A stretch of DNA of 64,000 bases from Candidatus Bathyarchaeota archaeon (GTDB lineage: Archaea > Thermoproteota > Bathyarchaeia > Bathyarchaeales > Bathycorpusculaceae): the NCBI GenBank assembly GCA_963770935.1, contig CAVYRJ010000001.1, forward strand, positions 32,001-96,000, read 5' to 3'. The notes beneath the pieces are model-generated. The model saw nothing but the letters and a program-made list of their open reading frames with translations, was not told the DNA's origin and did not search any database. Every line of letters begins with the position of its first letter. The stretch's first letter is position 1. This document shows positions 38,201 to 64,000 of this stretch, piece by piece. The position numbers were made by a program, and so were the translations under genes.

Positions 38201-38995
38201 TTAAGGCGCCTTTTCCGCGTGTGTTTTATTCCACTCTTCGTTAAAGTAGCCTGTCGCTATTATCAAAACATGGGGGTTGTTTGACCATAAACTGGGCAGG
38301 ATGTTGTCTTGGCATACTTGCAGAGTAATCTGTTTGTTGTCAAATATGTGCATTCCAAATTGAATGGGATCATCTGTGTATTTTACTTGAAAAGAGGGTT
38401 TTTCTATAAGAGGTCCCCAGATTACATGGGGCAACTCATCTTCGGGGGGCTTTTGTGTGATTAATCGGATTTTTAGGTTTTTCTTTGTTTCGATCATGTT
38501 TTTGAGCAAGAGCCATTCGTTCTCAAATTTCATCGGAACCTTTATCGTAGGTAAAATAATATCTATGCTGTTTTGGCTTTTCTGAATGAGTTTTTGGTGT
38601 GTTTTAAGAAAGAGCGTTACTTCTGAAGTAATGATGTATTGTGCACTTTCAGAAGGACATGCGTTTTTTTTAACTATGGGAAAACAATCAAGCAATAAAT
38701 CTTTTTTCTTGACTAGATCGTTGTATTTTTGTTTTTTATTCTCAAGTAATATACAGAGCGCTTCGTTTATGGGCGTGGCTCTATACCGGGTTGGTTTGGC
38801 TATAATTTTTTCCACTAGCCCTATTTTCTCTAATGTTGGCATGATCCTGTAAATATCCTGTCGAGCTACATTGGTATCTTTTGCAAGTAGTTTTACATCT
38901 GCTTCATAAAATTTAACAAGGTTTAGGTATATTGTTGCCTGGAGCAAGCTAAGACCAAAATCCATAAGGAGATGTATACTTTCGCCCATATTCAT
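38201..38995 (-). CDS. TrmB family transcriptional regulator
   Basis: FGLSLLQATIY, RQDIYRIMPTLEKIGLVEK and PTRYRATP HTH, plus a C-terminal effector domain (IFDNK). Confidence 0.85.
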   Translation of the reverse strand: MNMGESIHLLMDFGLSLLQATIYLNLVKFYEADVKLLAKDTNVARQDIYRIMPTLEKIGLVEKIIAKPTRYRATPINEALCILLENKKQKYNDLVKKKDLLLDCFPIVKKNACPSESAQYIITSEVTLFLKTHQKLIQKSQNSIDIILPTIKVPMKFENEWLLLKNMIETKKNLKIRLITQKPPEDELPHVIWGPLIEKPSFQVKYTDDPIQFGMHIFDNKQITLQVCQDNILPSLWSNNPHVLIIATGYFNEEWNKTHAEKAP

Positions 38996-39100
38996 TTTAT
39001 GCGTCTTCCGTAGCGTGATAAATATGAGCTTTAAGTCTTAAGGTTTTAGCGTGTCAGATTTCTCAATCTCTTGGTTAGCCCAATTTGTGTGCTGGTTGAG

Positions 39101-39114
39101 CAAAAAAAAGGGAT
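39101..39114 (-). terminator. U-tract terminator after propeller gene 1
   Basis: Minus strand ATCCCTTTTTTTTG about 20 nt after the stop codon. Same pattern follows all five paralogues. Confidence 0.6.
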
Positions 39115-39131
39115 AGGTTTTTGATTTGTTT

Positions 39132-41561
39132 TTATGGTCGTTTCTTGAGTAATAGCAGAACCATTACTATGCCGACAAGCGCGATAGCAACTATTATTCC
39201 AGCGATTGCGGGGATAAAGTATAGGTCAGCTGCTGAGGGTGAAGCGGTTGCGACGGGGGCTTGAGTGGTTGTTGGTTCTGAAACGGTGAAAGCGGTATCT
39301 GCGTGTGAGGGCCAATATGATTCAGAGCCGACAAAGTTGGCAGTAACAGTGTAGGTGCCTGAGATGTCAGGTTTCCAGTTCAAGCTAAAGAAGCCATTTG
39401 CGTTAGTGGTGGTTTGGCCTATTGAGCGTTGGTTACCGTTTGAGTCAATGACATTGATTGTTACTAAGACGCCTGTGGTGTTGGTTGGTTTGGGTTGTTG
39501 CTGGTAAATATATGCCATCCAATCTGTTTGGCTTTCGTCTGAGACTGCTGGAACACCGTTGGGGAAACGTGAAGCTTGTTCTTGTGCCTCAGTGCCTGGG
39601 GAAATGTCGATTACGGTACCTTTGATGAGGACGCTTTTGTCCGATGGAACTTCTATGTCGGGTGCTGAAACTGTGACAGCGGTTGGACCTTTGCCAAAGT
39701 TGTAGATGCTGTTGTCATAGTGGTTGTATGCCGTAACGGTTCCGTCTGCGATTACTGGTCCTTGCAGCCATCCTTGTGAGCGCCATATTTCTTCACCGGT
39801 GGTAGCATTAACCGCGACCAGTGCTGCTCCGCGGTAAAGCGGGTGGTTGGGGCTGTGTTCGCCTACTGCTGCAAAGATTTTTCCGTCTGCTGCAACGTGT
39901 AAGCCGTTTCCCAATGGATACGTGCCGTAGGGTGTTTCGTAACCTGCGTTGCCGATGTAGTAGTTCCAGTCGTTGTTTCCTGTTTCCATATCGAAACAGT
40001 GTATCGTGCCGTCGTATGCTACTGCATATAATTTGCCATATGCGACAACTGGGCTAGATGCGCCTAGACCGTTTCCGCCTGAGGTGTACATGCCCCATGC
40101 GCTTTCATACGGTTCAGTTTGCCAGAGTTGTTTTCCGGTGGTTGCGTCATAGCCGTACCATGTCATGGTTTCTTGTTTGAACCATGCAAATTTTCCGTCG
40201 ACTTCTCCTGTGAAGAAGTACGTGGCTGATTCGGTGCTTGAGACGTTGAAGTTGAATAGCTGGGCTCCATTTTTTGTACTGTATCCTGTGACGCTTATGA
40301 CTCTATCTACACCTGTACCGACTGCGTTGGCTGCAATTATTGTGTTCTTACCCATTGTTGCGATGCTTTGGCTGCCTGGGACGTCTGGTACGCTTACGTT
40401 CCATTCAATACCTCGGCTCCAAGTAACGTTTATGCCGGCGTTTGCTCTCCAGTCCCATCCTTGACTTCCACCTGTTTGGTTGACTATGGCTTTGGTTGCA
40501 TTCCACAATGTGAGCGTGTTTTGTGCGCCGCTAAGGATGTAGGACAACAGGTTACCTTTTTCGTCTAATGCATGTCTGCCAGTGGTGGCGTTGACGATTC
40601 GAAGTATTTCTGTTCCGGTGACGGGATCATACATTCTGTAGGTGGCTCCAGAGCTCCAGAGGTATGAAAACGCTCCGTGCTGGTTTGGTGAGTCGAATTC
40701 GAATGATTGACCGAATGATATGGTTGTGCCATTTTGGAACCAAAGTTGTTCGCCCGTTGCTAGATCTCGGCATACGAGCCCTAGGGTTGCCGATGCTCCA
40801 AGTCGTTGTTGATAGTAGAGTTTTCCGTTTAGAATTACTGGAGGTGACCATTTGCTTTCGTATGAAGCGCCGCTGTAGTAACCCAGATTTCCCAGCTCTC
40901 CGCTAACTAGTCCGCCTAGATCTTTTTCTTTTTTCCATAGAACGTGTGCACTGTTTGTAGCTGAACCGACTGGGACCCAGTTGGATCCTCCTGCCCATGA
41001 GCTGCCAACGACCATAGGTAAGCCGTACCAATTGTTTTCAATTGCATACCAGGCTCTATTCTGTGCGTTGATGGGTCTTGTCCAGTATTCCTGTGGAAGA
41101 GGTGTGTTAGGATAATCACCAATGGGTTCATCTTGAACAACTAGAACGATGTCAGGTGCTGTAGTACCTTTGATGGTGCGGGTGCCGACTGTTTCTCCTG
41201 GATAGCTGAATTTGATTGTGTAGGTGCCGACTTCGGTGGGTGTGATTGATATGTATTTTGAGCCTACTGGATCAGAAGGTCCAACGTCTGTTGTTATCTT
41301 TCCAGATGGGCTTATGACTGTTATGTTGTAGTTTGTCCATGTTGCAGTGGCGCTACCTGGGTATGCGTTGTTTGGAAGAAGGTCGACCCACGCAGTGACT
41401 TGGGCTCTTTGCCCAAGTCCAACGGGGTTGGGACTGACTGATAGAAAGCCATAGGTTGGGAAGTCTTCAGCTTGGACTGCAGGAACAAAGATAGATAGCA
41501 TTGACATTATCAGAATCGATGCGATTACTATTGACAGAGTTTTCACTTTTATTTGTCTCAT
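39132..41561 (-). CDS. Surface-anchored PQQ-like beta-propeller protein, paralogue 1 (809 aa)
   Basis: Signal peptide (VQA/E), Ig-like N domain, DxxTGxxxW repeats, Ig-like C domain, Pro/Thr linker, TM and LLKKRP end. Confidence 0.85.
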   Translation of the reverse strand: MRQIKVKTLSIVIASILIMSMLSIFVPAVQAEDFPTYGFLSVSPNPVGLGQRAQVTAWVDLLPNNAYPGSATATWTNYNITVISPSGKITTDVGPSDPVGSKYISITPTEVGTYTIKFSYPGETVGTRTIKGTTAPDIVLVVQDEPIGDYPNTPLPQEYWTRPINAQNRAWYAIENNWYGLPMVVGSSWAGGSNWVPVGSATNSAHVLWKKEKDLGGLVSGELGNLGYYSGASYESKWSPPVILNGKLYYQQRLGASATLGLVCRDLATGEQLWFQNGTTISFGQSFEFDSPNQHGAFSYLWSSGATYRMYDPVTGTEILRIVNATTGRHALDEKGNLLSYILSGAQNTLTLWNATKAIVNQTGGSQGWDWRANAGINVTWSRGIEWNVSVPDVPGSQSIATMGKNTIIAANAVGTGVDRVISVTGYSTKNGAQLFNFNVSSTESATYFFTGEVDGKFAWFKQETMTWYGYDATTGKQLWQTEPYESAWGMYTSGGNGLGASSPVVAYGKLYAVAYDGTIHCFDMETGNNDWNYYIGNAGYETPYGTYPLGNGLHVAADGKIFAAVGEHSPNHPLYRGAALVAVNATTGEEIWRSQGWLQGPVIADGTVTAYNHYDNSIYNFGKGPTAVTVSAPDIEVPSDKSVLIKGTVIDISPGTEAQEQASRFPNGVPAVSDESQTDWMAYIYQQQPKPTNTTGVLVTINVIDSNGNQRSIGQTTTNANGFFSLNWKPDISGTYTVTANFVGSESYWPSHADTAFTVSEPTTTQAPVATASPSAADLYFIPAIAGIIVAIALVGIVMVLLLLKKRP

Positions 41562-42097: not shown

Positions 42098-42316
42098 CTA
42101 ATCTCTCTGTTTGACCACGTATGCGGCTATGATTGAGATTATGATAAGGGCTATGAATATTATTCCAAATATGGACATTGGTGTTCTGAAGTTGGGGTCG
42201 CCTATGAGAGTGTCGTTTGAGGGCATTGGAACATAAAAAGCAGCCAAGAAAATACCAAAGAAAACGATGCCTATGCCTTGCGCCAAAAACACTAACGAGG
42301 TCAATTGACTTTTCAT
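42098..42316 (-). CDS. Small two-TM membrane protein
   Basis: 72 aa with two hydrophobic helices. Confidence 0.6.
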   Translation of the reverse strand: MKSQLTSLVFLAQGIGIVFFGIFLAAFYVPMPSNDTLIGDPNFRTPMSIFGIIFIALIIISIIAAYVVKQRD

Positions 42317-42456: not shown

Positions 42457-43353
42457 ATGTCCAGCGCTAAATCTAGTTATATGATTCGAACAGGATTATT
42501 TTTAACTGCTTTGTCTTGGTTCGCGTTTACGTTTTACGAGTTTGTTAATGCAATCACTCATGTTATCCAGCCCAACAGTGATAATCCGGTTTGGACTTGG
42601 CTGGTGCTTCAAGAAACCGGAGGAACCGTGGGTTTAGGCTTAAGAACAGCAGGCGGCTTAATCGCAGTTATAGCTTGCCTGTTCTATCTCGTAAAAAGGG
42701 ACCTCTCCGAACCAGAAGCTCTTATGGCACTTCGGCTGGTTGTAATCTTTGAAGCCTCATATTGGCTTTCCTTCCTCTTCTCTATAAGTCCTCGCGGCTT
42801 CACCAACATAAGCGCACTAATCGAGAACAACCTGCCAATTATCGTGCAGGCAACCGTTCTACCCATTGTTTTGATTATATTATTTTTCCACTTGACTCCA
42901 AAAAGGGCATCGACCGGCGGATTAAAGTGGGGGCTGATTTCAGGCATCGTTTACATTCTGGTCCTTTGGCTCAATAACGCGGGCAACTGGATAGCCGCAG
43001 CCATGATAAAAGGAATGGATTACTTAACACTGTACCCAGCGAACCTGTTTAGTTTCGGTTTAACCGTAGTCGGGTTGCTTTTGCTAGCTCTCTACACAGC
43101 GTATTTTACCAAGAAAACAATCGCAAAACACGACATCACACAATTAAACCTAAGAACAATAGGTTTCATCATCACTGCCTTCGGATTGTACTTTGACATA
43201 GTATACGTTATGTTCCTCTCTTTGGGAGCGGTTGGCGGCTGGGGAATGTGGTACGCTTGGTTTACGGGTCACAACTTGGACTTGTGGCTAATGGCACTTC
43301 CATTCGCGGGTCTCCCATTCCTTTTTCAAAATAAAAATGAAACCTCATCCTAA
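42457..43353 (+). CDS. Multi-pass hypothetical membrane protein
   Basis: 298 aa with about 8 hydrophobic segments. No family recognised. Confidence 0.75.
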   Translation: MSSAKSSYMIRTGLFLTALSWFAFTFYEFVNAITHVIQPNSDNPVWTWLVLQETGGTVGLGLRTAGGLIAVIACLFYLVKRDLSEPEALMALRLVVIFEASYWLSFLFSISPRGFTNISALIENNLPIIVQATVLPIVLIILFFHLTPKRASTGGLKWGLISGIVYILVLWLNNAGNWIAAAMIKGMDYLTLYPANLFSFGLTVVGLLLLALYTAYFTKKTIAKHDITQLNLRTIGFIITAFGLYFDIVYVMFLSLGAVGGWGMWYAWFTGHNLDLWLMALPFAGLPFLFQNKNETSS

Positions 43354-43500: not shown

Positions 43501-43523
43501 GTTTGTTTTTGTTTTATGGTAGT

Positions 43524-46043
43524 TTATGGTCGTTTTCTAAGCAGTAGCAAACCAACAATAGCTATAGCTATAATGATCGCTACTGTTGAACCAACAAAGT
43601 ACATCTCTGTAGGTGGTAAAGCTACGACTGGGACAGCTGTAGGTGTGGGTGCTGCTTCGTCGACGAAGAATGCGGTTTCAGCATATGAAGGCCAATAGGA
43701 TTCAGAGCCAGCGAAAGTGGCGACAACGGTGTATTCGCCTGTTATATCTGGTACCCATTTGAAGCTGAACATACCGCTTGCGTCACTGGTTGCTGAGCCG
43801 ATGGGTCGTTGATTGCCATTTGCGTCGATTACTTCAAGTGTTACTGGAACTCCAGTTGTGGTTTGTGGTTTTGGTTGCTGCATATACACGTACTTCATAA
43901 ATGCTGTCATGCTTTCATCAGAAACAGCTGGCAGGCCGTTGGGGAAACGTGGAGCTATATTAGAACTCTTTGCACCGGCTGATATGTCCATTACATTGCC
44001 CTTTATCATTACGCTGTCGCCATATGTTGCTATGTCGTTCTGGATTGAGACTGTTGTTTGGCTTGGTCCCTTGCCGAAGACGTACACATTCATATCGAAC
44101 ATGTTAGCGGTTGCCCAATATCCGTCAGCGAAAGCACCAATTTTCCAGAATCCCGTCATATCATAGATGCGTTCTCCTGTTGCAGCGTCATAGCAGTATA
44201 AGCTCCATCCTTTGTAGTAGGGTTGTGTAAGGGAGTGTTCAGCAGTTATTACAAACACTTTTCCATCAACAGGATAGATGCCGCCGATTGGATATCTGTC
44301 ATAAGGACCGTCAAGGTTGCATAGGTCGGTAGTAGTGTTCCATAGAAGTTTCCCTGTTTTAAGTTCATATGCATATAGTATTCCACCGTATCCACCTGAA
44401 TATAGTACGTCTTCACTGATAGCGCAGGTTCTGCTGTACATCATCCATTCGTTTTGTGGTTCAGTTGCCCAGAGTTGTGCTCCGGTGTTTATGTCAAAGC
44501 CCATCCACTGCCTTGTCTCTTTTGCCCTTACAACGAATACGCCAGCATCGAGAGAGAATTTATTTACCATAGTGCCTTCGAATTGATAAGTTACGTTGGC
44601 TGCTGGTGGTTTTAGGTTTATGTTGAACAACAATTGTCCCTTTGAAGCACCATCTGTTTTCACTGCCCAAATTGTGAATTGCTCGTCATATTGACTGTTG
44701 CCGTTAGCTACGAAACCTGAACCGCCAATTACTCGGTCTGGAAGAGTGAAGATGACGTTTCCTTTTAAGTTTAGCGGTAACGTTATGTTCCATGAATAGC
44801 CAAGTGATCCGTTGTGTTGCCTTGGTAGTATGTCGTTTTGAATCCCTGCTGGTCTCCATTGCCAGTAACTAGTTCCAGTTGTGCCCATTAGCATTGACGG
44901 TATTGCTGAGAAGTTCCATAGAGCTAACGATGTTCTGCCATTAGTTGGTCCTCCAATCACGTATCGCATATACTCACCGTTTGGTCCAACAGAGTTTACA
45001 CCTGAAGGAACGTTATAAATGGTAAAGAGTAACGCTCCCGTGAATGGATCATATGCCGTCATATTAGTGCCAAAAGTATTCCACAAGTATCCTTGTGCTC
45101 CGTGCTGATTAGGTGACCAGTATTCATATAGCGTAGCACTCTGTGCGCCGACTTTATCGTCCCGCCATAGCTCTTCTCCAGTGCGTAAATCTACTGCAAT
45201 ATATTCCTGTCCCGACATTAGGGTATAGTCTCTACTATGGAAGTCCCTGTGATTCAATGGCTGACTGTAATAAAGTATGCCATTTATGATGATTGGCTGC
45301 GTGAATCTTTGCTCATATGAGGTTCCTTCGTAATATGCCAGATTGTCCGTTACGGTTGGTTCGCCAACGAGGCCGCCAGCCTGAAGTGGCTTGGTCCACA
45401 TAATGTGAGCACTACCTGGCGCTTTGGTATAGGGATTATCTCGTCCGTCATTGAGCCAGTTACCTAAAATCGAGCTCCATTCTCTGTTGTATGCGTTTAC
45501 ATTACGTGTCCAGTATTCAGTTGGAAGTGGAACACCCGGCAGCAGTTCTAGTGGTGCCTCCTGTACGACAAAATTCGCTACGTTGCTGTCAGCGGCTGCA
45601 TATAATCGTTTAGACGTAGTTGTGTTTTTCCATGTTTCTGGGAAGTGAGTTTGAATAGAATATGTACCGACTGCATTTGGTGTATACAGATGGTATGTGG
45701 TTCCTACTGGATCAGTATATGGAAGATTTATGGTTTCTTTAGTGTTGTCAGGCTTGGTAATCGTCAGCGTTATGTCATACCATCCAGCTCTTGTGCTGGG
45801 TGATATAACAGTGCCTGCCGTCTCACCAATGTCTGGCGGCATTTCCGCAGTCCAAGTAATAAGGGTTACTTGTTGACCGACACCTACAGGGTTAGGAGCA
45901 GAAGATGCATAAATGAACGTGGGATACTTCTGTACAGTCTGAGCATTTGCTAAAGGCAAAACAGCAAAGATTGAAGAAGCAATCATTGTTATAGTTAGAA
46001 ACATCGCAATCAAAGTTGACATATTTTTATTTGATTTATTCAT
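43524..46043 (-). CDS. Surface-anchored PQQ-like beta-propeller protein, paralogue 2 (839 aa)
   Basis: Same architecture; signal peptide ANA/Q; ends LLLRKRP. Confidence 0.85.
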   Translation of the reverse strand: MNKSNKNMSTLIAMFLTITMIASSIFAVLPLANAQTVQKYPTFIYASSAPNPVGVGQQVTLITWTAEMPPDIGETAGTVISPSTRAGWYDITLTITKPDNTKETINLPYTDPVGTTYHLYTPNAVGTYSIQTHFPETWKNTTTSKRLYAAADSNVANFVVQEAPLELLPGVPLPTEYWTRNVNAYNREWSSILGNWLNDGRDNPYTKAPGSAHIMWTKPLQAGGLVGEPTVTDNLAYYEGTSYEQRFTQPIIINGILYYSQPLNHRDFHSRDYTLMSGQEYIAVDLRTGEELWRDDKVGAQSATLYEYWSPNQHGAQGYLWNTFGTNMTAYDPFTGALLFTIYNVPSGVNSVGPNGEYMRYVIGGPTNGRTSLALWNFSAIPSMLMGTTGTSYWQWRPAGIQNDILPRQHNGSLGYSWNITLPLNLKGNVIFTLPDRVIGGSGFVANGNSQYDEQFTIWAVKTDGASKGQLLFNINLKPPAANVTYQFEGTMVNKFSLDAGVFVVRAKETRQWMGFDINTGAQLWATEPQNEWMMYSRTCAISEDVLYSGGYGGILYAYELKTGKLLWNTTTDLCNLDGPYDRYPIGGIYPVDGKVFVITAEHSLTQPYYKGWSLYCYDAATGERIYDMTGFWKIGAFADGYWATANMFDMNVYVFGKGPSQTTVSIQNDIATYGDSVMIKGNVMDISAGAKSSNIAPRFPNGLPAVSDESMTAFMKYVYMQQPKPQTTTGVPVTLEVIDANGNQRPIGSATSDASGMFSFKWVPDITGEYTVVATFAGSESYWPSYAETAFFVDEAAPTPTAVPVVALPPTEMYFVGSTVAIIIAIAIVGLLLLRKRP

Positions 46044-53251: not shown

Positions 53252-54824
53252 TCAGATTTTGTAAAAGACTACTCTGCCCCCAACAATAGTCATTTCGACT
53301 TCAATCGTGGCTATTTCGTTATGCTTAGATGTGAGCAAATCTTGGGAGAGAACAATGAGGTCAGCATTTTTACCCCTCTCAATGGATCCCTTGATATTTT
53401 CCTCTGAAAAAGCGTACGCCGCATCAAGCGTATAAAAGCGCAAGGCATCCTCAACAGCAACCCCCTCGTTGGGAATAAACTCCCGTTTCACGGTTGCTTG
53501 GATTCCTAACAGAGGACTTAATGGTTCCATGGGGCAATCGGAGCCGCCGATAACCTTTATGCCTGAGCTGACTAATGTTTTTAGCGGATAAAGCCACCTC
53601 GCTCTTTCGGACCCCAAACGCTCAAACGCTGACCATACTCTAAACTCAGAATCCATAACGCAAGGTTGAACCGACACAATCACACTGGCGTTTTTCATGC
53701 GTTTAATCAGCCCTTGATTAAGAACTGCCGCCTGTTCAATCCGACTGCGTAGCGCTCTTCCTTCCGTTTCTTTAGAAATATTTTCAATTGCTGTTAAAGC
53801 CAGGTCAATCGCTTTGTCTCCAGCAGCATGTATGTTTAATTGTAGCTTGGCTTTGAGGATTTTAATGGCTAAAATGTTCATTTCTTCTTGTGTGTAGGAT
53901 AAGGTTCCGTTTGAAATGGGACAATCACTATAAGGTTCAAACATCGCGGCTGTTTTTGATGATAAATAGCCATCTGCAAAAATTACTGCACCGCTAACCT
54001 TAATTGTGCTGTTTGGGAATCTTTTGATAAATCAGAGATTGATTCGCTATCTATGAGTTCAACTGGAGCAATCACATAAACGCTTATTGGCAGCCTATTT
54101 TGTTCATTAAGCTGTTTGATTATCGACAACTCATCTGAAGAAAAAACTATCCAGCAAACACTAGTTATTCCAGCTCTCACAATTTTCTCGAACGCTGAAA
54201 AGATGGCTTCCATGAGTTCTTCCTTGGTTATAGTGGGAATGAACTTCCAAACTGAGTTTGTAGCATCGCCCCGTAAAATACCCGTCAGCTGACCTATTTC
54301 CTGTTTTTTATCAATAGTTTCACCGGATGCGACGGTTTGCTTTGTTAAGCCAGCTATTTCCAAAGCATAACTGTTAGCGATGGCAGTTGGGCGTATCTTT
54401 GATAAAAAATCACAGGGTTATCTGGAGAGACAACGTCTAAATCGTGACAGGTTGGAAGACGATTTTCAGCAAAACTATTTTGTTCCCACCCGTGTCCAAT
54501 AATCCAGTTTCCTTTCGGTGTTTTTTGCACATGCTTATTGAGACGAGCCTGTAGTTCCTTGATTGACCTCACGTCCCATAGATCAACCCATGTTAAGACT
54601 CTGCCAAAATCCGCAACATGTATGTGTGAATCGATAAAGCCTGGAACTACGGTTTTGCCTTTTAAGTCGATAACTTTTGTTTCTTTACCCATCCAGTTTG
54701 TAATGGCGCTGCTAATTCCGACTTGAATTATTTTGGCGGCTTCAATGGCAACTGCTTCAGCACGTGGTTGAGCAGGGTTCATAGTGATGATTTTTCCGTT
54801 GATTAAGACCAAGTCTGCTGGCAT
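53252..54824 (-). CDS. YtcJ-like amidohydrolase (Amidohydro_3), frameshifted
   Basis: NGKIITM, DLKGKTVVPGFIDSHIH, GITS, FADG, IHAAGD, RIEQA, GGSDCP, GSIERGKNADL. Confidence 0.85.
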
Positions 54825-54863
54825 ACAGTCACATTAAATTGCCTTTTAATTAACTTTAATGCT

Positions 54864-56337
54864 TTATGTGTAAGGATGAAGTTGCTCTCTAAACTTCTTG
54901 TAGTTGGTAAAAAACCACCTTAACACTTTTGTACGCCAAATGCGGTCGTTTAATGCTGTCTAGCCATGCTTTTGCTGTAGAAGGTGTTTTTTCGGAATTG
55001 ACGTAGAATATAGGACCATGAATAAAAGCGATTATAGAAGTCTCTTCGTGCATTTACTTAGTAAAATTAATTGTTAAATTGGGATTTTCAAAGACAGGTA
55101 CTTGCATGTCATAGCGACCCCAATCTGATGAAATCGGCGACCCGAGATCTTCCAATGTGCTTCTAAGAGCAGTTCCAGGATATGGAGTTGCCAAGCATAA
55201 GTAAACATAGTCTGGGTTGGCTCTTTTGATAAAGCTGAAGGTTTGTTTTAGGGTTTCGTCTGTTTCGCCAGGGTATCCGATGACAACAGACATGGCTACT
55301 GAAAGCCCTACTTCTTTTGCCAGTTTAATCGCTTTCTCATTTTGTTCAATTGTGGTTTTTTTGTTAACGGCATCCAAGATTTTCTGGCATCCTGATTCAG
55401 CTCCGAAACTAACAAGTTGGCAGTCTGCATCCCGCATTTTGACCAGAACTTCTTTGGAAATTCTGTCGACTCTCGTTTGGCAATCCCAAGGAATACCTAT
55501 ATGTCTCTTCTTGATTTCTTCACAAATAGTGATTGCTCGCTTTTGATCATAGGTAAATGCATCATCGTAAAAGCTAAAGGTGCCTGCCTTCTGTTCATTT
55601 TTTAACCATTCCAACTCGTCCACAACCTTTATTGGGTCTCTAGCCCTGAATGCTGTTCCAGCCATCCGAGACGATACGCAATATGAGCATTGGAAAGGGC
55701 AGCCTCTACTGGTTAAAACGGGGAGAATTCTTCTTCCGAAAAATTGATACTTGTCTAATGCAAAATAGTGATATGCTGGGTAAGGCAGTTCGTCAAGGTT
55801 TTGAATGAAAGGTCTGTTAGGCGTTCGAATTACCTGTCCATTTTTTCTAAAAGTAATTCCAGAAACATCATCAATATCTTCCGGGGCAGCCAATTTTTGC
55901 AGCAGGTTAAGAAAAGTTTCTTCACCTTCGCCTCTTACAATAATATCGACGTCTGGATGTTCATTTAGTATTTGGCTGTCCATAAATGTCGCATGTGGTC
56001 CACCTAAAACTACAGGTGTTTGGGGACAATTTTCTTTTGCAACTCGAGCTGCTAAAAGAGTTGACTGGATGAAGGGAGTGACAGATGTTATTCCGATTAC
56101 ATCAGGCATAAAAGAAGCTAACTTTGTCCCCAGAGTTTTGTGGTCTATTTCAAGTGCTTGGCAATCAATTAAAGCCAATTGGTAGCCTGCTTTTTCCAGA
56201 ACGGCCGCCAAATAAGCTAAACCAATAGGCAAGTTAGGACACCACATCTTGCCCATATCTAAGGTTGGAGGAATTACCAACGCTACTTTAATTTTTTTGT
56301 TCATGTCCGAAGCCTTAACATGGTCCAATAGCTTCAC
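54864..56337 (-). CDS. Cobalamin-binding radical SAM protein (C-terminus frameshifted)
   Basis: PIGLAYLAA, DVIGIT, GGPHAT, RGEGE, TSRGCPFQCSYC, YDDAF, FGAESG, ATPYPGT. Continues FYNRFYSWSYILRQ past 55054. Confidence 0.9.
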
Positions 56338-56495: not shown

Positions 56496-56513
56496 AAAAA
56501 CAAAAAAAGAAAG
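56496..56513 (-). terminator. U-tract terminator after propeller gene 5
   Basis: Minus strand CTTTCTTTTTTTGTTTTT. Confidence 0.55.
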
Positions 56514-56544
56514 TAGAGATTTTTTTAGGTGTTTGTTTAGCTGT

Positions 56545-59253
56545 TTATGGTCGTTTTCGGAGCACTAGGATGATTATTAATCCTATTGCAACGATTGCGA
56601 TGATTATGCCGATTGTTGCTGGTACGAAGTATAGGTCAGCAGTCGATTGTGGAATTGGTGTTGGTGCAGGAGTTGTTGGCTCCTCATTACCTACTGCTAG
56701 GTAAGTGGTTCCGGACGATGGTCCATATGCTGCGGAGCCTGCGAAGGTTGCGATGATTTGGTATGTGCCTGGAACTTCGGGAGTGTATGCGAATCCATAG
56801 TTGCCGTTCATGTCACTTGTTGTTGTACCGATTGAAACTAAGTTGCCGTTTGGATCAATTGCTTCTAAGGTAACTTCGACACCTTTTGCGTTTGCGGGCA
56901 TCGTGTTTCCTTGGAACAAGTGTTCCATGTACGCTTCTTGGTCTGCGTCGGATATTGCTGGTGTGCCTTTGAGTGAGAAGTCTAAGCTGCCTGCGACATT
57001 GTGTCTTCCTGATGGAGATTGGTCGGTGACTGTGCCTTGGATCATTATGCTCGCGCCTAGTGCTGGAATTGCTTGTGGTGCAGAAACTGTGGTTGCGCTT
57101 GGTCCTCTGCCTATGCAGTATATTTGGTTGTCAACGCTGTTTAGGTATACTAAGCGTCCATCTGCGACCTTGATTCCCATGGCCCAAGCGGACATCTTCC
57201 AGAGCATTTCTCCTGTGGTTAGGTCTACACACCATACGTTTGCGTCGCGTCTAATGGGGCTGTTGACTGAGTGTTCGCTAGTGTAGCAGTATGCTTTGCC
57301 GTCAGCGATAGCACCTATGTACATTGTTGTGTGCCAGTATGGAGATTCTCCTAATCCTTCGGATGGAGCTGTCCAATTCCAGAGGACGTCTCCTGTTTGT
57401 GCATCGTAACCGATTAGTACGCCAGAGTAGCCTGAGGCGATGAGTTTGTTGTCATAGTAGACTTCGTTGAGACCATAGTAATTCCATCCGTTTTCTGGTA
57501 CTGCAGTCTTCCAAACTTGTTGTCCAGTTGTTAGGTCGAAGCCCCAGCGGTTGCCTGAGATACGTTCTCTGAAGTAGAACATGTTCTCTTCTGGTACCAC
57601 TTGGCATAATTCAACTGCATCAGTTACTTGGTATCCTATGTATGTAGCGTTGGGGAAATCGGCGACTGACTTCGGTGGTGTGAATGTAGTTGTCCATAGT
57701 GTCTCTCCTACGTGGTCCGTCTTTAAGCTGATAGCTCTTAAGTAGCCTTGCACGACGCCTCTAGCATCGTTTCGTCCAGTTGTTCCAATGATGATATATT
57801 CGTCAGGAATTACTCGTCTGATGGTAGCAGTTTGGTTGACAATAGAGTTCACGTTGACTCCGTTTATCATTGTGTTTTCCATTGTTTTGTTTGCTGAGAA
57901 ACCATTTTGTCCGTTATAGGTGTTGTTTAGGTATGGTCTCCACATCCAGTAAGTATTTGACGTGGATGAAGGCTCTGTCTTAGAACCGTTATAGAGTGTT
58001 TTGTCACCAGCCGTTCCGTATGCTGCTCTCCACCAAATAGCTTCAGTTGTGTTCCAAATTTGCAGTCTATAGTTAGGTGCTGTGGTAGTGCCGAGGTTGA
58101 CCATGTTAACGTAGCATATTCCTCCGTAGCCATCTCGGTATTGTGTACCGCTGGAGGATACGTTGGCTATGCTACAGATGTAGCCATTGGAGTAAGCATC
58201 ATACATGTCCCATTTGCCCGATGTGCCTGTATTAGTAACCCAGAGGTAGGCGAATGTCCCGTGTTGGTTGGGAGTGTCCATGTATAGAATCTGACCAAAA
58301 TTGAATGCATTAATGTCCAAGCTTCCTGAGTCATCAAAGCCGCCGCTTCTGTCGATTGGGAATGATGTGTTCTGGAAGAAAATCTTTTCACCAGTGTATA
58401 AATCAATGGCCCATCGTCCAATGCGTGGAGGTGTCTCTTGCTTAATGTAGACTTTTCCTTCAAGGACTATACTTGGTGTGCCAAAGGTTTCGTATGACTG
58501 CCCGTTATAGTAGCTTTCAGCAGAATTGGCAGCATTCATTCCGTCTGCGATTCCACCTGACCAGTATGAAGTTGTCCACAAAACGTGAGCACTTTCTGGT
58601 CCTTCACTCATGGGGTTGACGTTCGTAGTTGAGCCATTAACCATGGCATAAGATCCTTAGCCATTGTCCTGCCTTAGCTGGTACCAGAGTCTGTTATTTT
58701 GGTATATTGGGCGTGTCGAGTAGTCGTTTGGAAGTGGAGTCTCTTCATATTTGGTTATTGGTTCCTGCTGTACAGTTACGTATGATGCTGGGCTAATAGC
58801 CGCTGCGAAAGTGTCGTTTGTATAGGCATGTGTCGGTTTTATATTACCTGGTGTTGGATAGCCTGTCAGTGTTGTTGCAGGGAAGAATACTTGGAATGTA
58901 TATGTGCCTAGCTGATCATATGTGTATGAGAAGTAAGCTGAGCCGACTGGGTCAGATACTAGGTTAGTTTTAGTTTCGTTAGTTCCATCGGGCTTCACAA
59001 TGTTTACGCTGTAGACAAATCTGTCACCGTATTCACCAGAAGCTGTGGGCATATAATAGTTGCACCAAATGACAAACAAACCTGATTGTCCTAGACCGAT
59101 GACTTCGGGTGAAGGTTCGCCCCAGACGTAGTTAATAAGCTCCCATGGAGGTGTGTGTGCAGTAGTAGATGGCAGAGCCATCATTGTGGTTAGCATTGAT
59201 ATTGCCAGAATCATTGTTATAGCAATAGTAATTTTACTTTTTGCAATTTTCAA
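56545..59253 (-). CDS. Surface-anchored PQQ-like beta-propeller protein, paralogue 5 (~900 aa; frameshift ~58660)
   Basis: N-terminal ORF 58657-59253 (signal peptide, DPVG, ETPLP) plus ORF 56545-58644; ends VLRKRP. Confidence 0.85.
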
Positions 59254-59453
59254 ATTTTTCTTATTCTCCTATATTTTGTGACTTATGCAAACGTAAAAAG
59301 CGCTTATTAACGTTTTCCAGATTTGCGCTTGCCTGTTGTAAATATTGGTCGTGTTTTTCTGGCAAAAACACCATAATTTTTTTAAAAAGTTAAAACTACT
59401 TTGATGAAATTGTGGAGATCAGCTCCAAACATAAATGCCAAAAATCTGCAATA

Positions 59454-60819
59454 TCAAAGTAAACCCTTCAAAAAAGTAAGAAGACCATCCCGCCGAATTC
59501 TTCGGAAAATTGTTTTCGGCGATGTGTTAAAACTCCGTTGAAAACGCTGTTGAATCTTAACCACTGATTCGTAATTAAACTGGTCAGTTTTAACGAAAGC
59601 CAAAAAATCTTCCTTTCGATCGTAAAGACCTTTCTTGAGAACTTCTTCGTCAAGACCGCTAGTTGGACAGGCTATATAGACATAGAATGTGCACCAATCT
59701 GGGCCCAACTTTTTTGCGAACTTGTAGGTTGCTTCCATATCAGCTACTGTTTCACCGGGGATTCCGAGCATAAAAGAGCAGGCTATGTTCATACGCGCTT
59801 TTCTGCAGAGCTTGAAGGCAGCCTCGATTTTTTCGGGGGTTGTGTGTGTGTTTAGTTTTTCTAGAATTCGAGGAACACCTGATTGCACCCCAAAAAATAT
59901 TGTTCTGCAACCAGCTTCATACATTTCATTAAGCAATTCTAAAGATAAGAGGTCAACTCTTGTGTCACAAGCCCATTCAATATCGAGTTTTCGCTCTTTC
60001 ATTAGACGACATATTTCAGACGTTCGTTTTTTGTTGATGGTGAAGTTGTCGTCTATGAAGTAGATACCTTTGGAACCAAATTTCTGCTTCATGTATTCGA
60101 GTTCTTCTATGACACGAAGAGGAGAGAAAGCGCGGCATTTGACCCCCAGAGATTCCGAGTTTCGCAGTAGTTGCAGTCATATGGACAGCCTCTCTGTATA
60201 TTCATTACATCAACGGGGTTAGCTTTAAGATAGCCAATTTTTCTATCATAAATTTCCATTGGTAAAAGGTGTCGTGCAGGGAAGGGTATGCTGTCTACGT
60301 CTTCGTTTATTTGTGGAGCGGTTTTAACTATTTTTCCATCTAATTTGCAGGCGACGCCTGGAATTTGGGCGATTATTCGCTTGTCGATGCCTTTTGTAAT
60401 TTGGGTTGCGAGTTCAACCATGGCTTTTTCGCCTTCGCCCATCACAGCGTAATCTATTTCTGGATTTTCAAGTGCTGTTTCAGGCAGGTATGAGGCGTGC
60501 CAACCACCAATTACCACTTTGCATGAAGGGGTCACTTCTTTGGTAATCTTTGCCATTTCCACACAGCGACGATAAGTAACTGAACCACAGGTTATACCCA
60601 CTATTTCTGGTTTGATTCTCTGTATTTCCTGCTTTACAAAATCCAGAGTTGTCCTTAACTGGTAATTATCGAGAATTTGAACTTCAAAACCGGCTTTTTC
60701 AAGAGCCCCACCAACATACGCTAATCCTAAAGGGGGAAGTTTAGCTGGCACACCCCAAGGAGAATTTAACGGTGGAATGGTCGTCATCAACAGAATCAAC
60801 GTAATTTTTCCCCAGACAT
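59454..60819 (-). CDS. Cobalamin-binding radical SAM protein (frameshifts ~60800 and ~60130)
   Basis: PPLGLAYVGG, EIVGIT, GGWHAS, GEGE, QRGCPYDCNYC, FIDDNF, DTRVD, FFGVQSG. Confidence 0.87.
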
Positions 60820-61073
60820 ATCAATTATTACACATAGCATAACTTCGTTTCATAATAAACTTAACTGTATAAGGCATAAACAACAAAATAATTGAAAAAC
60901 ACCAGAATTCGATTACTTGGTAGGAGGAGAATAAAACGAACCATCTAAACTAGGGTTTGTGAATATTAACGAGCCAATTGCAAACAAAAATCCATTTTAG
61001 CAATCAGCCTGCTAATGGGATATACTTAATTAATTCGCAATTTTAATATAAGAAAAAAAGGTCAGTTGGGTAA

Positions 61074-62516
61074 ATGCCTATTGGAGAGACAAGAAGACTC
61101 AAGATTGCGTTAGTTAGTCCTCCACCGCCATCCGTTTTAGCGTTTGTTGACTACCAAAATCCAACAGTAGGCTTAGCGATTTTGGCAGCAGTAGCAGAGA
61201 AAAACGGGCCGAAGTGACAGTATTCGACTGCCCAGCGCTCCACATGACCTACGACCAACTTAAGCAAGAAATTGGATGTTTCAAGCCTGATATAGTCGGC
61301 ATCACAGCTGTTACTCCAACGTTTTCATCAGCACTAAAAGTTGCGCAAAGCACAAAGCAAGCTTATCCACAGTCGCTGGTTGTGTTAGGAGGTCCCCACG
61401 TAACAATTTCAGATGACCAATTTATTCTACAGCACCCTGAAGTAGATGTTGTTGTTAAAGGTGAAGGCGAACAAACAATAGTTGACCTGGCGCACTACGT
61501 TTTGGGTGAGACGAATTTAGATCAGATTGCAGGAATAACATTTAAGAAAAATGAGCAAATTGTCCACACTCCAAATAGACCCTGCATTGAAAACCTCGAT
61601 GATTTGCCACCTCCAGCATACGACTATTTTCCCTTAAGCAAGTATCGGATTTTCGGCAAGCTGAGGTCTTCGATGGTAACGGGAAGGGGATTAACTCTTG
61701 CCCCACAATGCAGCTTCTGTTTGGTTCCACAAATCGGAGGCAACAGCTACCGAACGAAAACGCCCAAAGGCATCGTCGACGAGATGGAATACTTACGAAA
61801 CCACTACCACCCCCGACTTCATCTCATTCAACGATGAAGCCTTTACTTATGACCAAAAAAGAGCAGCAGCGGTCTGCTCAGAAATTCGCCAGCGAAAAAT
61901 CACAGTTCCATGGGACTGCCAAACACGAGTTGACCTGATTTCAAAAGAACTACTATACAGAATGAGAGCAGTGAATTGTCAGCTAGTTTGTTTCGGCATC
62001 GAATCGGGGAGCCAAAAAATTCTCAACGCCATGAAAAAGGACACCACAGTAGAGCAAAATGCGACCGCAATCAGATGGGCTAAAGAAGCAGGCTTATCCG
62101 TGAATGTTTCCCTGATTATTGGCTACCCCGGCGAGACCAAAGAAACACTTAAAGAGACGATAGATTTTATGAAGAAAACTGAACCTGACGACATTTTCCT
62201 GTTTCTGGCGACGCCTTATCCGAACACTGAATTGCGCGAGACAGTTCTGGATATGGGTTGGAAGATGTCGCAGGATTGGAATGACTTTGAGATGCAGTCG
62301 GCGACTTTTGAAAATATGGCGCTACCTTTTGGCAGAATTAACAATGTCCGGGAAATTTTCTATAATCAACTTTACTCGCCTGCCTATATCTTGCGACAAT
62401 CGCTAAAGCATACGATTTACAGTGGGATTATGGTACAAAATGGGCTGCATCAACTCCTTTGGCGACTTAAGTTGCCGTGGCTTTCTGCGAATTTTAAGAA
62501 GCTTCTACATATGTAG
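61074..62516 (+). CDS. Cobalamin-binding radical SAM protein (frameshifts ~61210 and ~61810)
   Basis: MPIGETRRLKIALVSPP..VGLAILAA, DIVGIT, GGPHVT, GEGE, CSFC, NDEAF, CQTRVD, FGIESG, ATPYPNT. Confidence 0.85.
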
Positions 62517-62558
62517 AGCCAAAAAAGCGGTAAAAAGCGCCCGATTACTCGGTGGTTT

Positions 62559-64000
62559 TTAGGTTATAGTGGAATCGGTGAGGCAGTAAATGTTCCAGTT
62601 ATTATTCCCCACATACAACTTTCCATCGTAGAGAGAAGCAGCTGACCAACTGTTGGAGCTTGTTTCAAAACGACTAAGCTTATCCCCAGTAGTCGCATCA
62701 AGCACGTATATTGAACGTTGATCAGTAACTACGTAGAGTTTGCCGTCAGCATAAGTTGGGGAAACATACAACTCTTCGTTAAGGAAGGCAAACCATAGAG
62801 GTTGACCGGTTTGTGCGTTAACACAAACGATAGAGTACTTATCGATTAAGAAAACTTGACCGTTCGCGTAAGCAGGAGAACATACGATTAATTCTCTTGC
62901 TGCGTCGTCGCTGAAGGTCCATATCGTTTCGCCAGTGTCGATATTTATGGCGTAGTAGGCACCCATGTTTGAGGATATGATAACCATGCCGTCGGCTACA
63001 ACTGGAGATCCGTGCAAGTCGGTGCCTCCGCCCAAGGTAATGAAATAAGGTACAGTTATCTTCCAAATCAGGACTCCCGACGCAGCGTCTAGTTTGTAAA
63101 GAGCACCTGCATCGGGTTCTTGCGAAGTAACATAAACTGCACCATTAGCAATAGCTGGAGAAGATGTAATGTACCCCAGAGTCTTAAAGGTCCAAACGAC
63201 ATCGCCATTATCGGCATCAAAACAGTACACATTCTTGTCTAATGAACCGACATAAACAAGGCCACCGACCACGGTGGGAGAAGACTTCAAACGGACCAAA
63301 GAGGCAAAGTTAGCTTCAACGTAACCTCCAGCTGATTTTTTCCAAATTAAGCTACCTTCGTTAGCGTTGAGACAATATACGTTTCCATCGTCAGGTCCTA
63401 TGTAGACTTTTCCGTTGGATAATGCAAGAGAAGATTGAATTCTGCTGGAGGTGGGGAACTTCCAGATGTAGCTGCCGTTTTGCGCATCTAGACAGTAGAC
63501 GTTTTTATCTTGTGAACCGAAAAAAACTCTGCCGTTTGCCATGCTAGGTGAGGAGCTTACAGCTCCAGTGGTCGTATAATTCCAGAGTAAAGCCAGGTTT
63601 GTTGGTCCAGACTGGGCAGCCGCTAAGTGAGCGGGGTTTTGTCTGTAGTTTGACCAAGTTTGAGGACCGAAAGCCCACACTTGACCTGCTGTGTCGTATT
63701 CTTCGCCTGATATCGAGTCAACAGCTGTTGTAACACTACCCGGAATCATGTACAGGTTGCCGTAGGCAATGACGACGGATTCTCTTGGAGCGTAAGCCTC
63801 TAGGGGCAACTGCCATATGACCGCCCCCGTGTAAGCATCGAGGCATGAAAACTCAGCCAAGCCTCCCTCGCCGATATATGAAGCTGTTTGCCCAGTGGTA
63901 GCATAGACTTTGCCGTCTGCAACGGTCGGGGTTCCTGGGAACATCAAAGTGCTTGGCCCTTGGTATTTCCACACAACATCTCCGTTGGTTACATTAAGAG
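62559..64000 (-). CDS. PQQ-like/BamB-type tandem beta-propeller repeat protein (5' part outside window)
   Basis: Many SSP.VADGKVY.GS.D..VYCLDA.TG..IW repeats. An internal WSNYRQNPAH motif suggests a second propeller. Confidence 0.85.
   Translation of the reverse strand, partial: LNVTNGDVVWKYQGPSTLMFPGTPTVADGKVYATTGQTASYIGEGGLAEFSCLDAYTGAVIWQLPLEAYAPRESVVIAYGNLYMIPGSVTTAVDSISGEEYDTAGQVWAFGPQTWSNYRQNPAHLAAAQSGPTNLALLWNYTTTGAVSSSPSMANGRVFFGSQDKNVYCLDAQNGSYIWKFPTSSRIQSSLALSNGKVYIGPDDGNVYCLNANEGSLIWKKSAGGYVEANFASLVRLKSSPTVVGGLVYVGSLDKNVYCFDADNGDVVWTFKTLGYITSSPAIANGAVYVTSQEPDAGALYKLDAASGVLIWKITVPYFITLGGGTDLHGSPVVADGMVIISSNMGAYYAINIDTGETIWTFSDDAARELIVCSPAYANGQVFLIDKYSIVCVNAQTGQPLWFAFLNEELYVSPTYADGKLYVVTDQRSIYVLDATTGDKLSRFETSSNSWSAASLYDGKLYVGNNNWNIYCLTDSTIT

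Follow-up and report, generated by a model that had tools for sequence, protein, structure and literature searches.

Propeller paralogues of the window and their family

The stretch of DNA analysed here, referred to as the window, comprises 64,000 nucleotides of a Candidatus Bathyarchaeota genome (assembly GCA_963770935.1, contig CAVYRJ010000001.1, positions 32,001 to 96,000) and carries between 38.2 and 64 kb five large genes, designated pA to pE, that encode predicted surface β-propeller proteins. These five genes are members of a family of about 30 copies, whose expansion is already published from Bathy-6 Bathyarchaeia. A dedicated regulator of the TrmBL2 type is paired with about a fifth of the copies, and the neighbouring genes for radical S-adenosylmethionine (SAM) enzymes, CbiB and an amidohydrolase, which a sequence-only reading had joined with the propellers into one candidate system, appear from their gene order to be a separate conserved island that occurs with or without paralogues. 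The listing of open reading frames (ORFs) and searches with Pfam and NCBIfam yielded the following features (E, expectation value; Moco, molybdenum cofactor).

35576..37069, plus strand: gene for a B12 radical SAM enzyme at the edge of the island, just outside the region delimited by the sequence-only reading
37087..38115, minus strand: CbiB gene at the edge of the island, likewise just outside that region
38201..38995, minus strand: TrmBL2-type transcription regulator of 264 amino acids (PF01978), tail-to-head with pA and downstream of it
39132..41561, minus strand: propeller paralogue pA, 809 amino acids, uninterrupted (PF13360, E 6.7e-13), with signal peptide and C-terminal anchor
42098..42316, minus strand: ORF of 72 amino acids with two hydrophobic helices and no family match; its status as a gene is uncertain
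42457..43353, plus strand: membrane protein of 298 amino acids with six hydrophobic segments (hydropathy) and no match in Pfam, NCBIfam or PADLOC
43524..46043, minus strand: propeller paralogue pB, 839 amino acids, uninterrupted (PF13360, E 2.3e-14); the copy used for the AlphaFold model
46287..49046, minus strand: propeller paralogue pC, 919 amino acids, uninterrupted (PF13360, E 3.8e-07)
49306..50115, minus strand: small Moco-domain-like protein (PF00174, E 2.3e-11, 44 bits) with a signal-like N-terminus, a Pro/Thr/Gln stalk and a C-terminal anchor
50302..53029, minus strand: propeller paralogue pD, in two frames in the record; 908 amino acids without the base at 52596
53252..54824, minus strand: YtcJ-like amidohydrolase (PF07969), in three pieces in the record; member of the conserved island
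55054..56337, minus strand: B12-binding radical SAM enzyme, 427 amino acids (PF02310 and PF04055)
56545..59253, minus strand: propeller paralogue pE, interrupted by TAA in the record; 888 amino acids with the 1+2 base differences of related contigs
59454..60799, minus strand: B12-binding radical SAM enzyme, in two pieces in the record
61214..62516, plus strand: B12-binding radical SAM enzyme, frameshifted in the record
62559..64000, minus strand: C-terminal part of a double-propeller protein of 794 amino acids that continues beyond the end of the window (strong matches to PF13570 and PF13360)

All genes that the sequence-only reading had named between 38.2 and 64 kb were thus found in their places, including the three B12 radical SAM genes with a fourth one at about 35.6 kb (35576-37069), and the BamB-like propeller, the Moco-domain surface protein, the two membrane ORFs and the gene of the TrmB family answered to their description. 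The five paralogues are indeed co-oriented, all of them on the minus strand, and of one build. Reading of the sequences revealed in each of the five a basic N-terminus, a hydrophobic core and an AXA-like cleavage site ending at residues 31-34, and at the C-terminus a Pro/Thr/Ser/Ala-rich stretch is followed by a hydrophobic helix and a final KKRP or RKRP. PF13360 is reached above its cut-off in all five proteins (29.4-54.1 bits versus 27.6); the matches to immunoglobulin (Ig)-like domains fall below the Pfam cut-offs, with the corresponding beta-sandwiches being visible in the model.

The AlphaFold model of pB (predicted local distance difference test, pLDDT, 84.0; predicted TM-score, pTM, 0.79) comprises a sandwich (residues 38-161), about 32 strands corresponding to eight blades (214-656), a second sandwich (661-795), a stalk of low confidence and a helix (816-835), so that the succession of Ig-like domain, propeller, Ig-like domain, stalk and transmembrane helix proposed from the letters alone can be seen in the model. 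The blade repeats were also recognised by profile comparison of blade segments. The structural comparison that had been proposed as a check, carried out on pB, returned an 8-bladed propeller with best matches of the BamB/YxaL type: among the VIA-align matches YxaL ranked first (Z 20.1, root-mean-square deviation 3.9 over 319 residues, region approximately 181-659) and BamB reached Z 17.3 (4.3 over 294 residues), and the top Foldseek matches were BamB, tetrathionate hydrolase and YxaL. Among proteins of solved structure, BamB was likewise closest in sequence (E 1.7e-11). The BamB equivalog model TIGR03300, with a cut-off of 285.2 bits, yielded 21.7-29.2 bits in pA, pB and pE and no match in pC and pD. 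YxaL of Bacillus velezensis and BamB of Gram-negative bacteria are cofactor-free 8-bladed PQQ-like propellers (PQQ, pyrroloquinoline quinone) that act as extracytoplasmic scaffolds; the paralogues share only 12-16% identity with them and differ further by their pair of Ig-like sandwiches, their stalk and membrane anchor, and long insertions within the middle blades. To our knowledge, archaea possess neither an outer membrane nor the β-barrel assembly (BAM) machinery.

The claim that the paralogues combine conserved ends with a diverged middle stood for the C-terminal end and for the middle. When 14 intact copies were compared, residues 641-800, corresponding to the C-terminal sandwich, were most alike (mean pairwise identity about 0.5) and residues 401-520 least alike (about 0.25); the N-terminal part, with an identity of only 0.33-0.38, does not belong to the conserved regions. 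Since the propeller is colinear with the N-terminal half of the 794-amino-acid protein, the variable middle corresponds to insertions in the central blades. The assignment of a separate terminator and a promoter-like sequence to each paralogue holds at the sequence level: a tract of seven to eight T residues is located 25-45 nucleotides past the stop codon of each window paralogue, and the region of the ribosome site and start codon as well as that of the stop codon and terminator recur as repeat families (D3, D8 and D10), which makes separate transcription units plausible.

A search with pB yielded 49 matches in the genome, which merge into 30 full-size loci and three fragments on 12 contigs and together occupy 79,435 nucleotides, or 4.0% of 1.98 Mb. 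The 14 intact copies share 35-58% pairwise identity (median 40%). The nearest relative of pA (C4:139847, 69% identity) is located outside the array; pC is closest to C9:132993 (61%), followed by pD (54%), and pB is approximately 41% identical to every other copy. By these identities, the array in the window is not a set of tandem duplicates. The proposed diversified repertoire of surface proteins is supported, with 30 divergent copies in the genome and a signal peptide, a stalk and an anchor in all five window copies.

The family was present in all 18 other genomes of the genus, with 6-42 matches each (up to 31 scored); at E <= 1e-20, none was found in 12 genomes representing other families of its order. 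The count of paralogues per genome, which had been suggested as a check, was extended to a sample of the class, where the family occurs in 27 of 201 genomes and seven of 87 genera, one of the 27 genomes containing only fragmentary matches on short contigs. As the genomes are related and not independent, these and all further cross-genome counts overstate the support and describe a pattern rather than test it. An exhaustive profile search retrieved 1,515 clusters (50% identity) at E <= 1e-30, a search of the ESM Atlas returned only clusters of the propeller family itself, and the named homologues of pB are annotated as 'PQQ-binding-like beta-propeller repeat protein' of Bathyarchaeota or Bathycorpusculum.

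The statement that no characterised system with this content is recognised does not extend to the propellers, as the family has already been described in print (ISME Commun 2024, PMC11697101). According to the main text of that paper, Bathy-6 genomes contain 74 clusters of PQQ-domain genes, one of which averages 24 copies in clade A, and 7-20 B12 radical SAM genes each; the PQQ-domain proteins carry Sec signals and Ig-like domains and were detected in proteomes, the divergent copies are ascribed to duplication within genomes, the habitat is one of lignocellulose, and redox chemistry with lignin is proposed. The family described here shares with the Bathy-6 expansion the PF13360 domain, a Sec-type signal peptide and tens of divergent copies, and the genome likewise contains many B12 radical SAM genes; the proposed PQQ redox chemistry is not supported by the tests presented below. 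The words TrmB, regulator, transmembrane, S-layer and synteny do not occur in the main text of the paper, the supplements lying outside this check.

Several features concern the surface location. Of the 36 ORFs in the genome with a terminal hydrophobic helix and a basic tail, 26 are paralogues, and the density of N-X-S/T sequons in the paralogues (1.30 per 100 amino acids) exceeds both that of 1,076 other ORFs (0.54) and the value expected from composition (0.95); a gene for AglB is present in the window. The NCBIfam models for C-terminal sorting signals (CTERM) did not match the paralogues, and the single gene of the archaeosortase family (G000:C7:42630-43427; L095 1276-2391) came closest to the thaumarchaeosortase model, with 67.5 bits far below the cut-off of 250. 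Immediately ahead of the anchor helix, the tails of the paralogues have in common a conserved Tyr-containing motif (D/E-x-Y-F/I-V/I-P/G) that might represent a sorting signal not yet recognised.

A TrmBL2-type regulator beside the paralogues

The regulator encoded at 38201-38995 matches PF01978 with 49.5 bits (cut-off 25.6) over residues 10-76, i.e., the winged helix-turn-helix. A profile built from 24 regulator sequences aligns colinearly with TrmBL2 from end to end (PDB 5bpd; residues 2-263 on 1-263, E 1.3e-19), whereas only residues 8-218 of 342 are covered in the sugar-sensing TrmB (3qph). In line with this, the regulators are 249-308 amino acids long, and the C-terminal TrmB domain of Pfam was not matched in the window regulator. 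As the sugar-binding part of TrmB is absent, control by sugars cannot be assumed. The idea that the region is under TrmB control is therefore retained with respect to a recurrent partner of the TrmB family, which is however of the TrmBL2 type and lacks the sugar-binding part.

When 212 ORFs within 4 kb of the paralogue loci of this genome were clustered, the TrmB-type family was the only one to recur at separate loci. It is represented by six proteins of 264-285 amino acids, each directly adjoining a paralogue, and all six full-length copies of the TrmBL2-type subfamily in the genome are located in this manner. Within the genus, a paralogue adjoins the regulator in 24 of the 30 best loci (flanks of 1.5 kb), mostly head-to-head and 115-240 bp apart; the six unpaired loci include two weak partial matches and one at a contig end. 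Beyond the genus (g14 and g18, and g27 of another family), nine of 14 full-length regulator loci have an adjacent paralogue, as compared to none of seven loci of other TrmB types, which served as an internal control. The TrmB-family regulator is thus a recurrent neighbour of the propellers, as the sequence-only reading had supposed. Moreover, the distances among regulators correlate with those among their partners (Mantel r 0.51; 28 pairs), a value reached in none of 2,000 permutations. The enrichment across Bathyarchaeia that had been suggested as a check was likewise observed, with strong regulator matches in 19 of 27 family-positive and two of 174 family-negative genomes. The pairing of regulator and propeller is not mentioned in the literature searched or in the main text of PMC11697101, its supplements not being covered.

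TrmBL2 of the Thermococcales (5bpd, 5box) resembles the regulators described here in its length of approximately 264 amino acids, the winged helix-turn-helix, a coiled coil and a phospholipase D (PLD)-like C-terminal domain. It is a single-copy, chromatin-like global repressor, in contrast to the regulators of the propeller family, which are present in 5-15 divergent copies per genome with about 30% mutual identity, each beside one target gene. In the search with the anti-phage models of PADLOC, the regulator gave only a weak helix-turn-helix match to CasR (E 2.4e-05).

Candidate sequence elements in the upstream regions were also considered. In 21 intergenic regions shared by a regulator and a paralogue, the words AAAGGA (a ribosome-site word, p 1.8e-05) and TATTAG (p 4.1e-05) were the most prominent, neither of which clearly survives correction for 4,096 words. 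The longest perfect inverted repeats between -130 and -15 did not differ significantly between 28 paralogues and 578 other genes (p 0.088), and an upstream hairpin as a general feature of the paralogues was consequently dropped.

In one group of four paralogues outside the window (C13:8022, C17:21399, C1:210287 and C3:~25000), about 105 nucleotides upstream of the genes are much more strongly conserved than the proteins themselves, whose identity is 37-57%. This stretch holds the element TTTAATATA and a leader with the pairing GGCAGGG...CCTTGCC, including a G-U position, which suggests a shared promoter, perhaps with an RNA hairpin, in one subfamily. Three further paralogue loci are accompanied by winged-helix regulators of the PadR type with 123-156 amino acids (C1:209637-210107, C5:39369-39740 and C10:52160-52591). 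It is possible that these represent a second kind of dedicated regulator; the genome contains nine PadR genes in all, too few to call with three beside paralogue loci.

The radical SAM island and the interrupted reading frames

The B12 radical SAM genes cluster independently of the propellers. Ten of the 15 B12-domain matches in the genome are located on contig 1, six of them between 67 kb and 99 kb, and the syntenic regions of five relatives (G002, G035, G010, G003 and G014) retain several B12 radical SAM genes, CbiB and the amidohydrolase, together with the 794-amino-acid double propeller, a gene for a SPASM radical SAM protein, a HemN-like gene and Rnf genes. CbiB, amidohydrolase and B12 radical SAM gene are contiguous in the relatives; here, they are parted by the stretch from the TrmB gene to pD. 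In contrast to this core, the paralogue content of the islands varies: both G002 and G010 possess an orthologue of pD, G010 in addition has a pC-like copy, and G035 has no orthologues of pA to pE at this place. The TrmB gene, the Moco-domain protein and the 298-amino-acid membrane protein have no counterpart in the syntenic region of any of the five relatives.

These observations do not support the view of the region as one system, since only the regulator recurs beside paralogues elsewhere. The notion of a substrate-utilisation locus fared similarly, as no family other than the TrmB type recurs among the clustered neighbours and the radical SAM cluster is confined to one locus. A predicted enrichment of Moco-domain neighbours was not found either, none of the six other PF00174 genes of the genome lying beside a paralogue. 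With respect to the B12 radical SAM genes, their copy number does rise with the family across genera, but 24 of 30 paralogues lack a radical SAM neighbour.

The radical SAM enzyme encoded at 55054-56337 has BchE as its best NCBIfam match (268 bits, below the cut-off of 481), and at its nine closest orthologue loci (L032-L040) no paralogue was seen within 1.5 kb. A paralogue lies within this distance in nine of 30 radical SAM loci, which reduce to one orthologous locus type and this genome's own locus. The double-propeller protein of 794 amino acids (G000:C1:94559-98354; L117 559-4354) is related to the family through its N-terminal half, which is homologous to the propeller of the paralogues (residues 63-427 align with 224-657; 98% probability, E 2.6e-13); its C-terminal half is a canonical propeller of the PQQ_2/ACSF4 type. 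Orthologues with 46-55% identity are present in the islands of all five relatives. Its gene lies head-to-head with the highly conserved SPASM radical SAM gene (82-94% identical in five relatives), and the two genes are adjacent in three of the six genomes looked at.

Every genome examined (G002, G035, G010, G003, G014, G122 and G177) has at least one paralogue within its radical SAM island or next to it. In G122, a member of another family, it starts about 1 kb past the radical SAM cluster, and G177 was judged by coordinates. In this genome, six of the 30 paralogues, belonging to at least four branches of the family, lie within approximately 35 kb of the island. Close radical SAM matches were scored up to eight per genome, and sister genera without the propeller family have none or one. 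On account of this co-expansion and of the paralogue present at every island, a trans-acting link is conceivable. The co-expansion, seen in about two clades, could simply follow from genome size or lifestyle; we regard it as a lead rather than a result.

No known family was matched by the 298-amino-acid membrane protein and the 72-amino-acid ORF, and we consider the Moco-domain and membrane proteins incidental neighbours of the paralogues. The Moco-domain protein (49306-50115; PF00174, 44 bits versus a cut-off of 24) has a Sec-like N-terminus devoid of a twin-arginine motif. Exported molybdenum enzymes normally require Tat export, and the domain may hence be free of cofactor or serve another role. 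Upstream of it by 25 kb, at 20907-24944, lie two MoeA genes in tandem and a gene for a radical SAM protein that bears a 4Fe-4S domain, which look like genes for molybdenum-cofactor synthesis. At 18879-20334, the N- and C-terminal parts of the large subunit of a terminase are encoded in two ORFs, and the stretch at 32000-35500 is of low GC content (0.377-0.41) and contains small ORFs without family matches; both might be left over from an integrated virus or other mobile DNA. An Rfam scan of the entire window gave no match.

Several genes of the region are interrupted in the record. A frameshift near 52596 splits pD, and pE is interrupted by a TAA that lies in frame at 58657-58659; the amidohydrolase falls into three pieces, as do two of the three B12 radical SAM genes into two pieces each. 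When contigs of four public runs were aligned on 50400-60300 of the window, one base at 52596 was missing from the contigs of all four runs, two of these contigs being near-identical to the window (0 mismatches in 388 nucleotides and 4 in 1,254). Without this base, pD reads as a single frame of 908 amino acids, and pE reaches 888 amino acids without the 1+2 bases by which two RNA-library runs differ at 58657 and 58673. Moreover, single open frames are found in the relatives for the orthologues of pD (946-948 codons in G002 and G010, 66-68% identity), the amidohydrolase (525-540 codons) and the radical SAM gene at 59454-60799 (457-487 codons in G035 and G002).

Genes unrelated to the family are broken as well. 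Within 9460-14997, 18879-20334 and 24992-30082 of the window, all in its first 35 kb, AglB/STT3 is split into two pieces, a family-B DNA polymerase into at least three, and a terminase large subunit and a DUF362 protein into two each, besides two split glycosyltransferases and a truncated aminotransferase; RnfD, just past the window, is also in two pieces (L117 12665-13847). Given the near-identical contigs without the extra base and the many unrelated split genes, the broken frames are probably assembly indels, a general problem of this assembly; the frameshift sites lie outside long homopolymers. Manual reading of the genome resulted in 14 uninterrupted and 16 interrupted paralogue copies. 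A looser automatic test of intactness gave 17 of 30, and as its criterion of a C-terminal tail proved too loose or too strict, the manual count was used. The rate of breaks in the paralogues is about equal to that in the remainder of the window, and thus nothing points to a decay specific for the family.

The contigs from two RNA libraries cover pD (about 99% identity) and pE, which indicates presence in RNA libraries and is no proof of transcription; they do not extend over 53.0-56.4 kb and past 59.3 kb, and these uncovered stretches carry no meaning. Some contigs of DNA and RNA runs join 50539-50794 (3′ part of pD) to 56794-57093 (3′ part of pE), skipping approximately 6.2 kb. At the DNA level, the regions encoding the C-terminal sandwiches show 70-73% identity among pC, pD and pE. 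As the 3′ parts are so alike, these joins are most simply explained as cross-overs of the assembly or as other paralogues; recombinant copies may likewise account for them.

Possible roles of the propeller repertoire

With moderate confidence, somewhat above an even judgement, we favour a lineage-restricted repertoire of individually controlled surface propellers beside a separate radical SAM island, with frames broken by assembly errors. Judged from sequence, each copy would be transcribed independently, as its upstream region is rich in A/T, its ribosome site is strong and an oligo-T terminator follows the gene. The encoded protein would be exported by means of its Sec-type signal peptide and held at the membrane by the C-terminal helix and basic tail behind the Pro/Thr stalk, so as to display, as the model predicts, an Ig-like sandwich, an 8-bladed propeller of the BamB/YxaL type and a second Ig-like sandwich. 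We infer that the members serve as alternative surface modules for binding or capture, to each of which the variable middle blades would give its own specificity, and which could be switched on or off separately. The TrmBL2-type regulator probably acts on a palindrome beside the promoter in the shared intergenic region. The island with radical SAM genes, CbiB, amidohydrolase and double propeller would have been inherited vertically, with members of the family being inserted in varying numbers.

Such an arrangement would work like the polysaccharide-utilisation loci of Bacteroidota, which comprise many paralogous surface binding proteins, each set with a dedicated regulator. The likeness would be one of analogy, in that paralogous surface proteins are accompanied by regulators of their own. 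Unlike in Bacteroidota, the regulator is the only recurrent neighbour of the archaeal genes, and neither a transporter nor a glycoside hydrolase nor any other enzyme is found beside them repeatedly.

Several observations weigh against this interpretation. No strong regulator match was obtained in seven of the 27 family-positive genomes (four of this genus, two of g19 and one of g27), an eighth, G167, is without any regulator match, and only about 20% of the copies have a TrmBL2-type neighbour. The evidence for a palindrome is modest: the longest inverted repeat in the 21 shared intergenic regions averages 6.33 nucleotides versus 5.56 in 85 control divergent regions (p 0.0027), with the test regions being slightly longer than the controls and p rising to 0.04 when one mismatch is allowed; the repeats are often located 50-66 nucleotides before the ATG of the paralogue. 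At least four close radical SAM matches were found in 26 of 27 family-positive as opposed to two of 174 family-negative genomes, which would agree with a functional link that is treated as indirect in this interpretation. Among 131 diverse members, H213 occurs without exception and H603 in at least 90%, and the polar motifs SAHxxW, PNQHG, WxWR and EHS occur in all five window copies; conserved in this way, they could mark a catalytic or cofactor site. Further conserved residues are D285, N312-Q313-H314, N377, R397, K595, E602, S604, D650 and D686. The strand positions in the DSSP line of the model suggest that PNQHG and EHS are situated in different kinds of loop. Finally, a fold similar to that of YxaL and BamB does not by itself reveal a function.

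Rather unlikely, in our view, is a variable coat, i.e., a set of alternative S-layer-like glycoproteins of which one or a few are expressed, for instance against viruses or grazers. Archaeal surface-layer glycoproteins are built from a signal peptide, beta domains, a Thr/Pro stalk and a C-terminal anchor, and the paralogues resemble them in this respect. The predominance of paralogues among the C-terminally anchored ORFs, the enriched sequons, the individual regulation of copies indicated by the regulator pairing, and a surface-layer protein of Methanosarcina with propeller and PKD domains (1l0q) at Foldseek rank 31 are consistent with such a coat. However, a median identity of 40% marks the copies as old, and their orthologues persist from genome to genome, unlike in fast-switching cassettes. 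Moreover, the repeat scans of the window revealed no switching repeats, invertible segments or silent cassettes, a tandem-repeat scan of 35-64 kb showed nothing relevant, and none of three tested paralogues matched an anti-phage model of PADLOC. As the family was not found in 174 of the 201 class genomes, it is not the general S-layer protein.

It appears unlikely, too, and slightly more so, that the propellers are extracellular PQQ-dependent dehydrogenases exchanging electrons with lignin or humic matter, as hypothesised in ISME Commun 2024. The matches to PF13360 ('PQQ_2'), the similarity to quinoprotein dehydrogenases at the level of blades (E about 1e-10), the conserved His, Asn, Gln, Glu and Arg motifs and the coverage of pD and pE by RNA-library contigs would fit an enzyme of this kind, as would the Sec signals, the detection in proteomes and the lignocellulose habitat given in the main text of PMC11697101. 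PQQ-dependent alcohol, methanol and sugar dehydrogenases have the same 8-bladed propeller and the same type of blade repeat, and the fold fails to separate them from BamB and YxaL. The paralogues, however, lack a family-level match as well as the cysteine pair. No model of a quinoprotein family was reached, PF01011 giving one match of 34 residues in pE (24.4 bits) and TIGR03075 none, and the sequence similarity is repeat-level and non-colinear, residues 483-560 or so of the query aligning to 45-139 in BamB, 86-208 in 1kv9 and 440-514 in methanol dehydrogenases. No cysteine is invariant or at least 90% conserved in alignments of 53 or 131 sequences (cysteine content 0.52%), and the vicinal disulfide of methanol and alcohol dehydrogenases is therefore missing.

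In structural comparisons, the cofactor-free YxaL and BamB rank above the quinoproteins, which appear lower in the Foldseek results (4mh1 at rank 32 and 1kv9 at rank 42; target TM-scores 0.41 and 0.36); that no quinoprotein chain is among the best 50 VIA-align matches listed is not evidence against quinoproteins. The SPASM radical SAM protein of the island is closer to models of the AhbD/NirJ type than to PqqE (118 bits versus a cut-off of 381). PqqC (TIGR02111) was found in none of 26 genomes of the genus, which is a weak argument, since the control likewise gave none of 14 named genomes. A precedent has been seen in Methanosarcina acetivorans, whose cluster of surface 'PQQ-binding' proteins (Song et al., ISME J 2023) is reported in the authors' response to be up-regulated with humic acid; these archaeal surface proteins carry the same annotation and are likened here by description only. 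The precedent for PQQ-based electron transfer is disputed, as the link to humic-acid respiration has been contested on the ground that humics could take less than 0.5% of the electron flux. Thus, as far as sequence and model go, nothing seems to support a PQQ enzyme, and the label of a PQQ dehydrogenase appears unsupported.

Very doubtful is an integrated system, in which the B12 radical SAM enzymes would modify the propellers, their cofactor or nearby lipids, and the Moco-domain protein, the amidohydrolase and TrmB would be parts of it. The findings in its favour have been described above: the six paralogues of at least four branches near the island, the presence of at least one paralogue at the island of every genome examined, the nine radical SAM loci with a close paralogue, and the rise of radical SAM matches with the family (at least four in 26 of 27 family-positive but in only two of 174 family-negative genomes). 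Yet 24 of 30 paralogues here lack a radical SAM neighbour, as do 14 of the 15 paralogues of G122 and the majority of those in G003 and G014. In addition, the nine adjacent loci amount to one orthologous locus type and this genome's own, and the core of the island is conserved despite changes in paralogue content, G035 having no orthologue of pA to pE at its island. None of the islands of the five relatives contains the Moco-domain protein, the membrane protein or the TrmB gene, and a co-expansion in roughly two clades may reflect larger genomes or a shared way of life. We give as little credence to the proposal that propellers and island are two halves of one lineage-specific extracellular machinery, in which the radical SAM enzymes would make or install a cofactor other than PQQ or methylate the propellers for an oxygen-free action on polymers of the lignin or humic type, each propeller being switched by its own TrmBL2-type or other small regulator and the conserved polar motifs being the working site.

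About 4% of the genome is devoted to this one family of surface proteins, which usually bear the label of PQQ dehydrogenases and figure as such in models of how lignin is broken down anaerobically. Our analysis adds that this label appears to be unsupported, the predicted propeller resembling the cofactor-free scaffolds YxaL and BamB, and that the apparent system would be a radical SAM island with inserted paralogues. The dedicated TrmBL2-type regulator beside about a fifth of the copies provides a practical experimental handle on the family.

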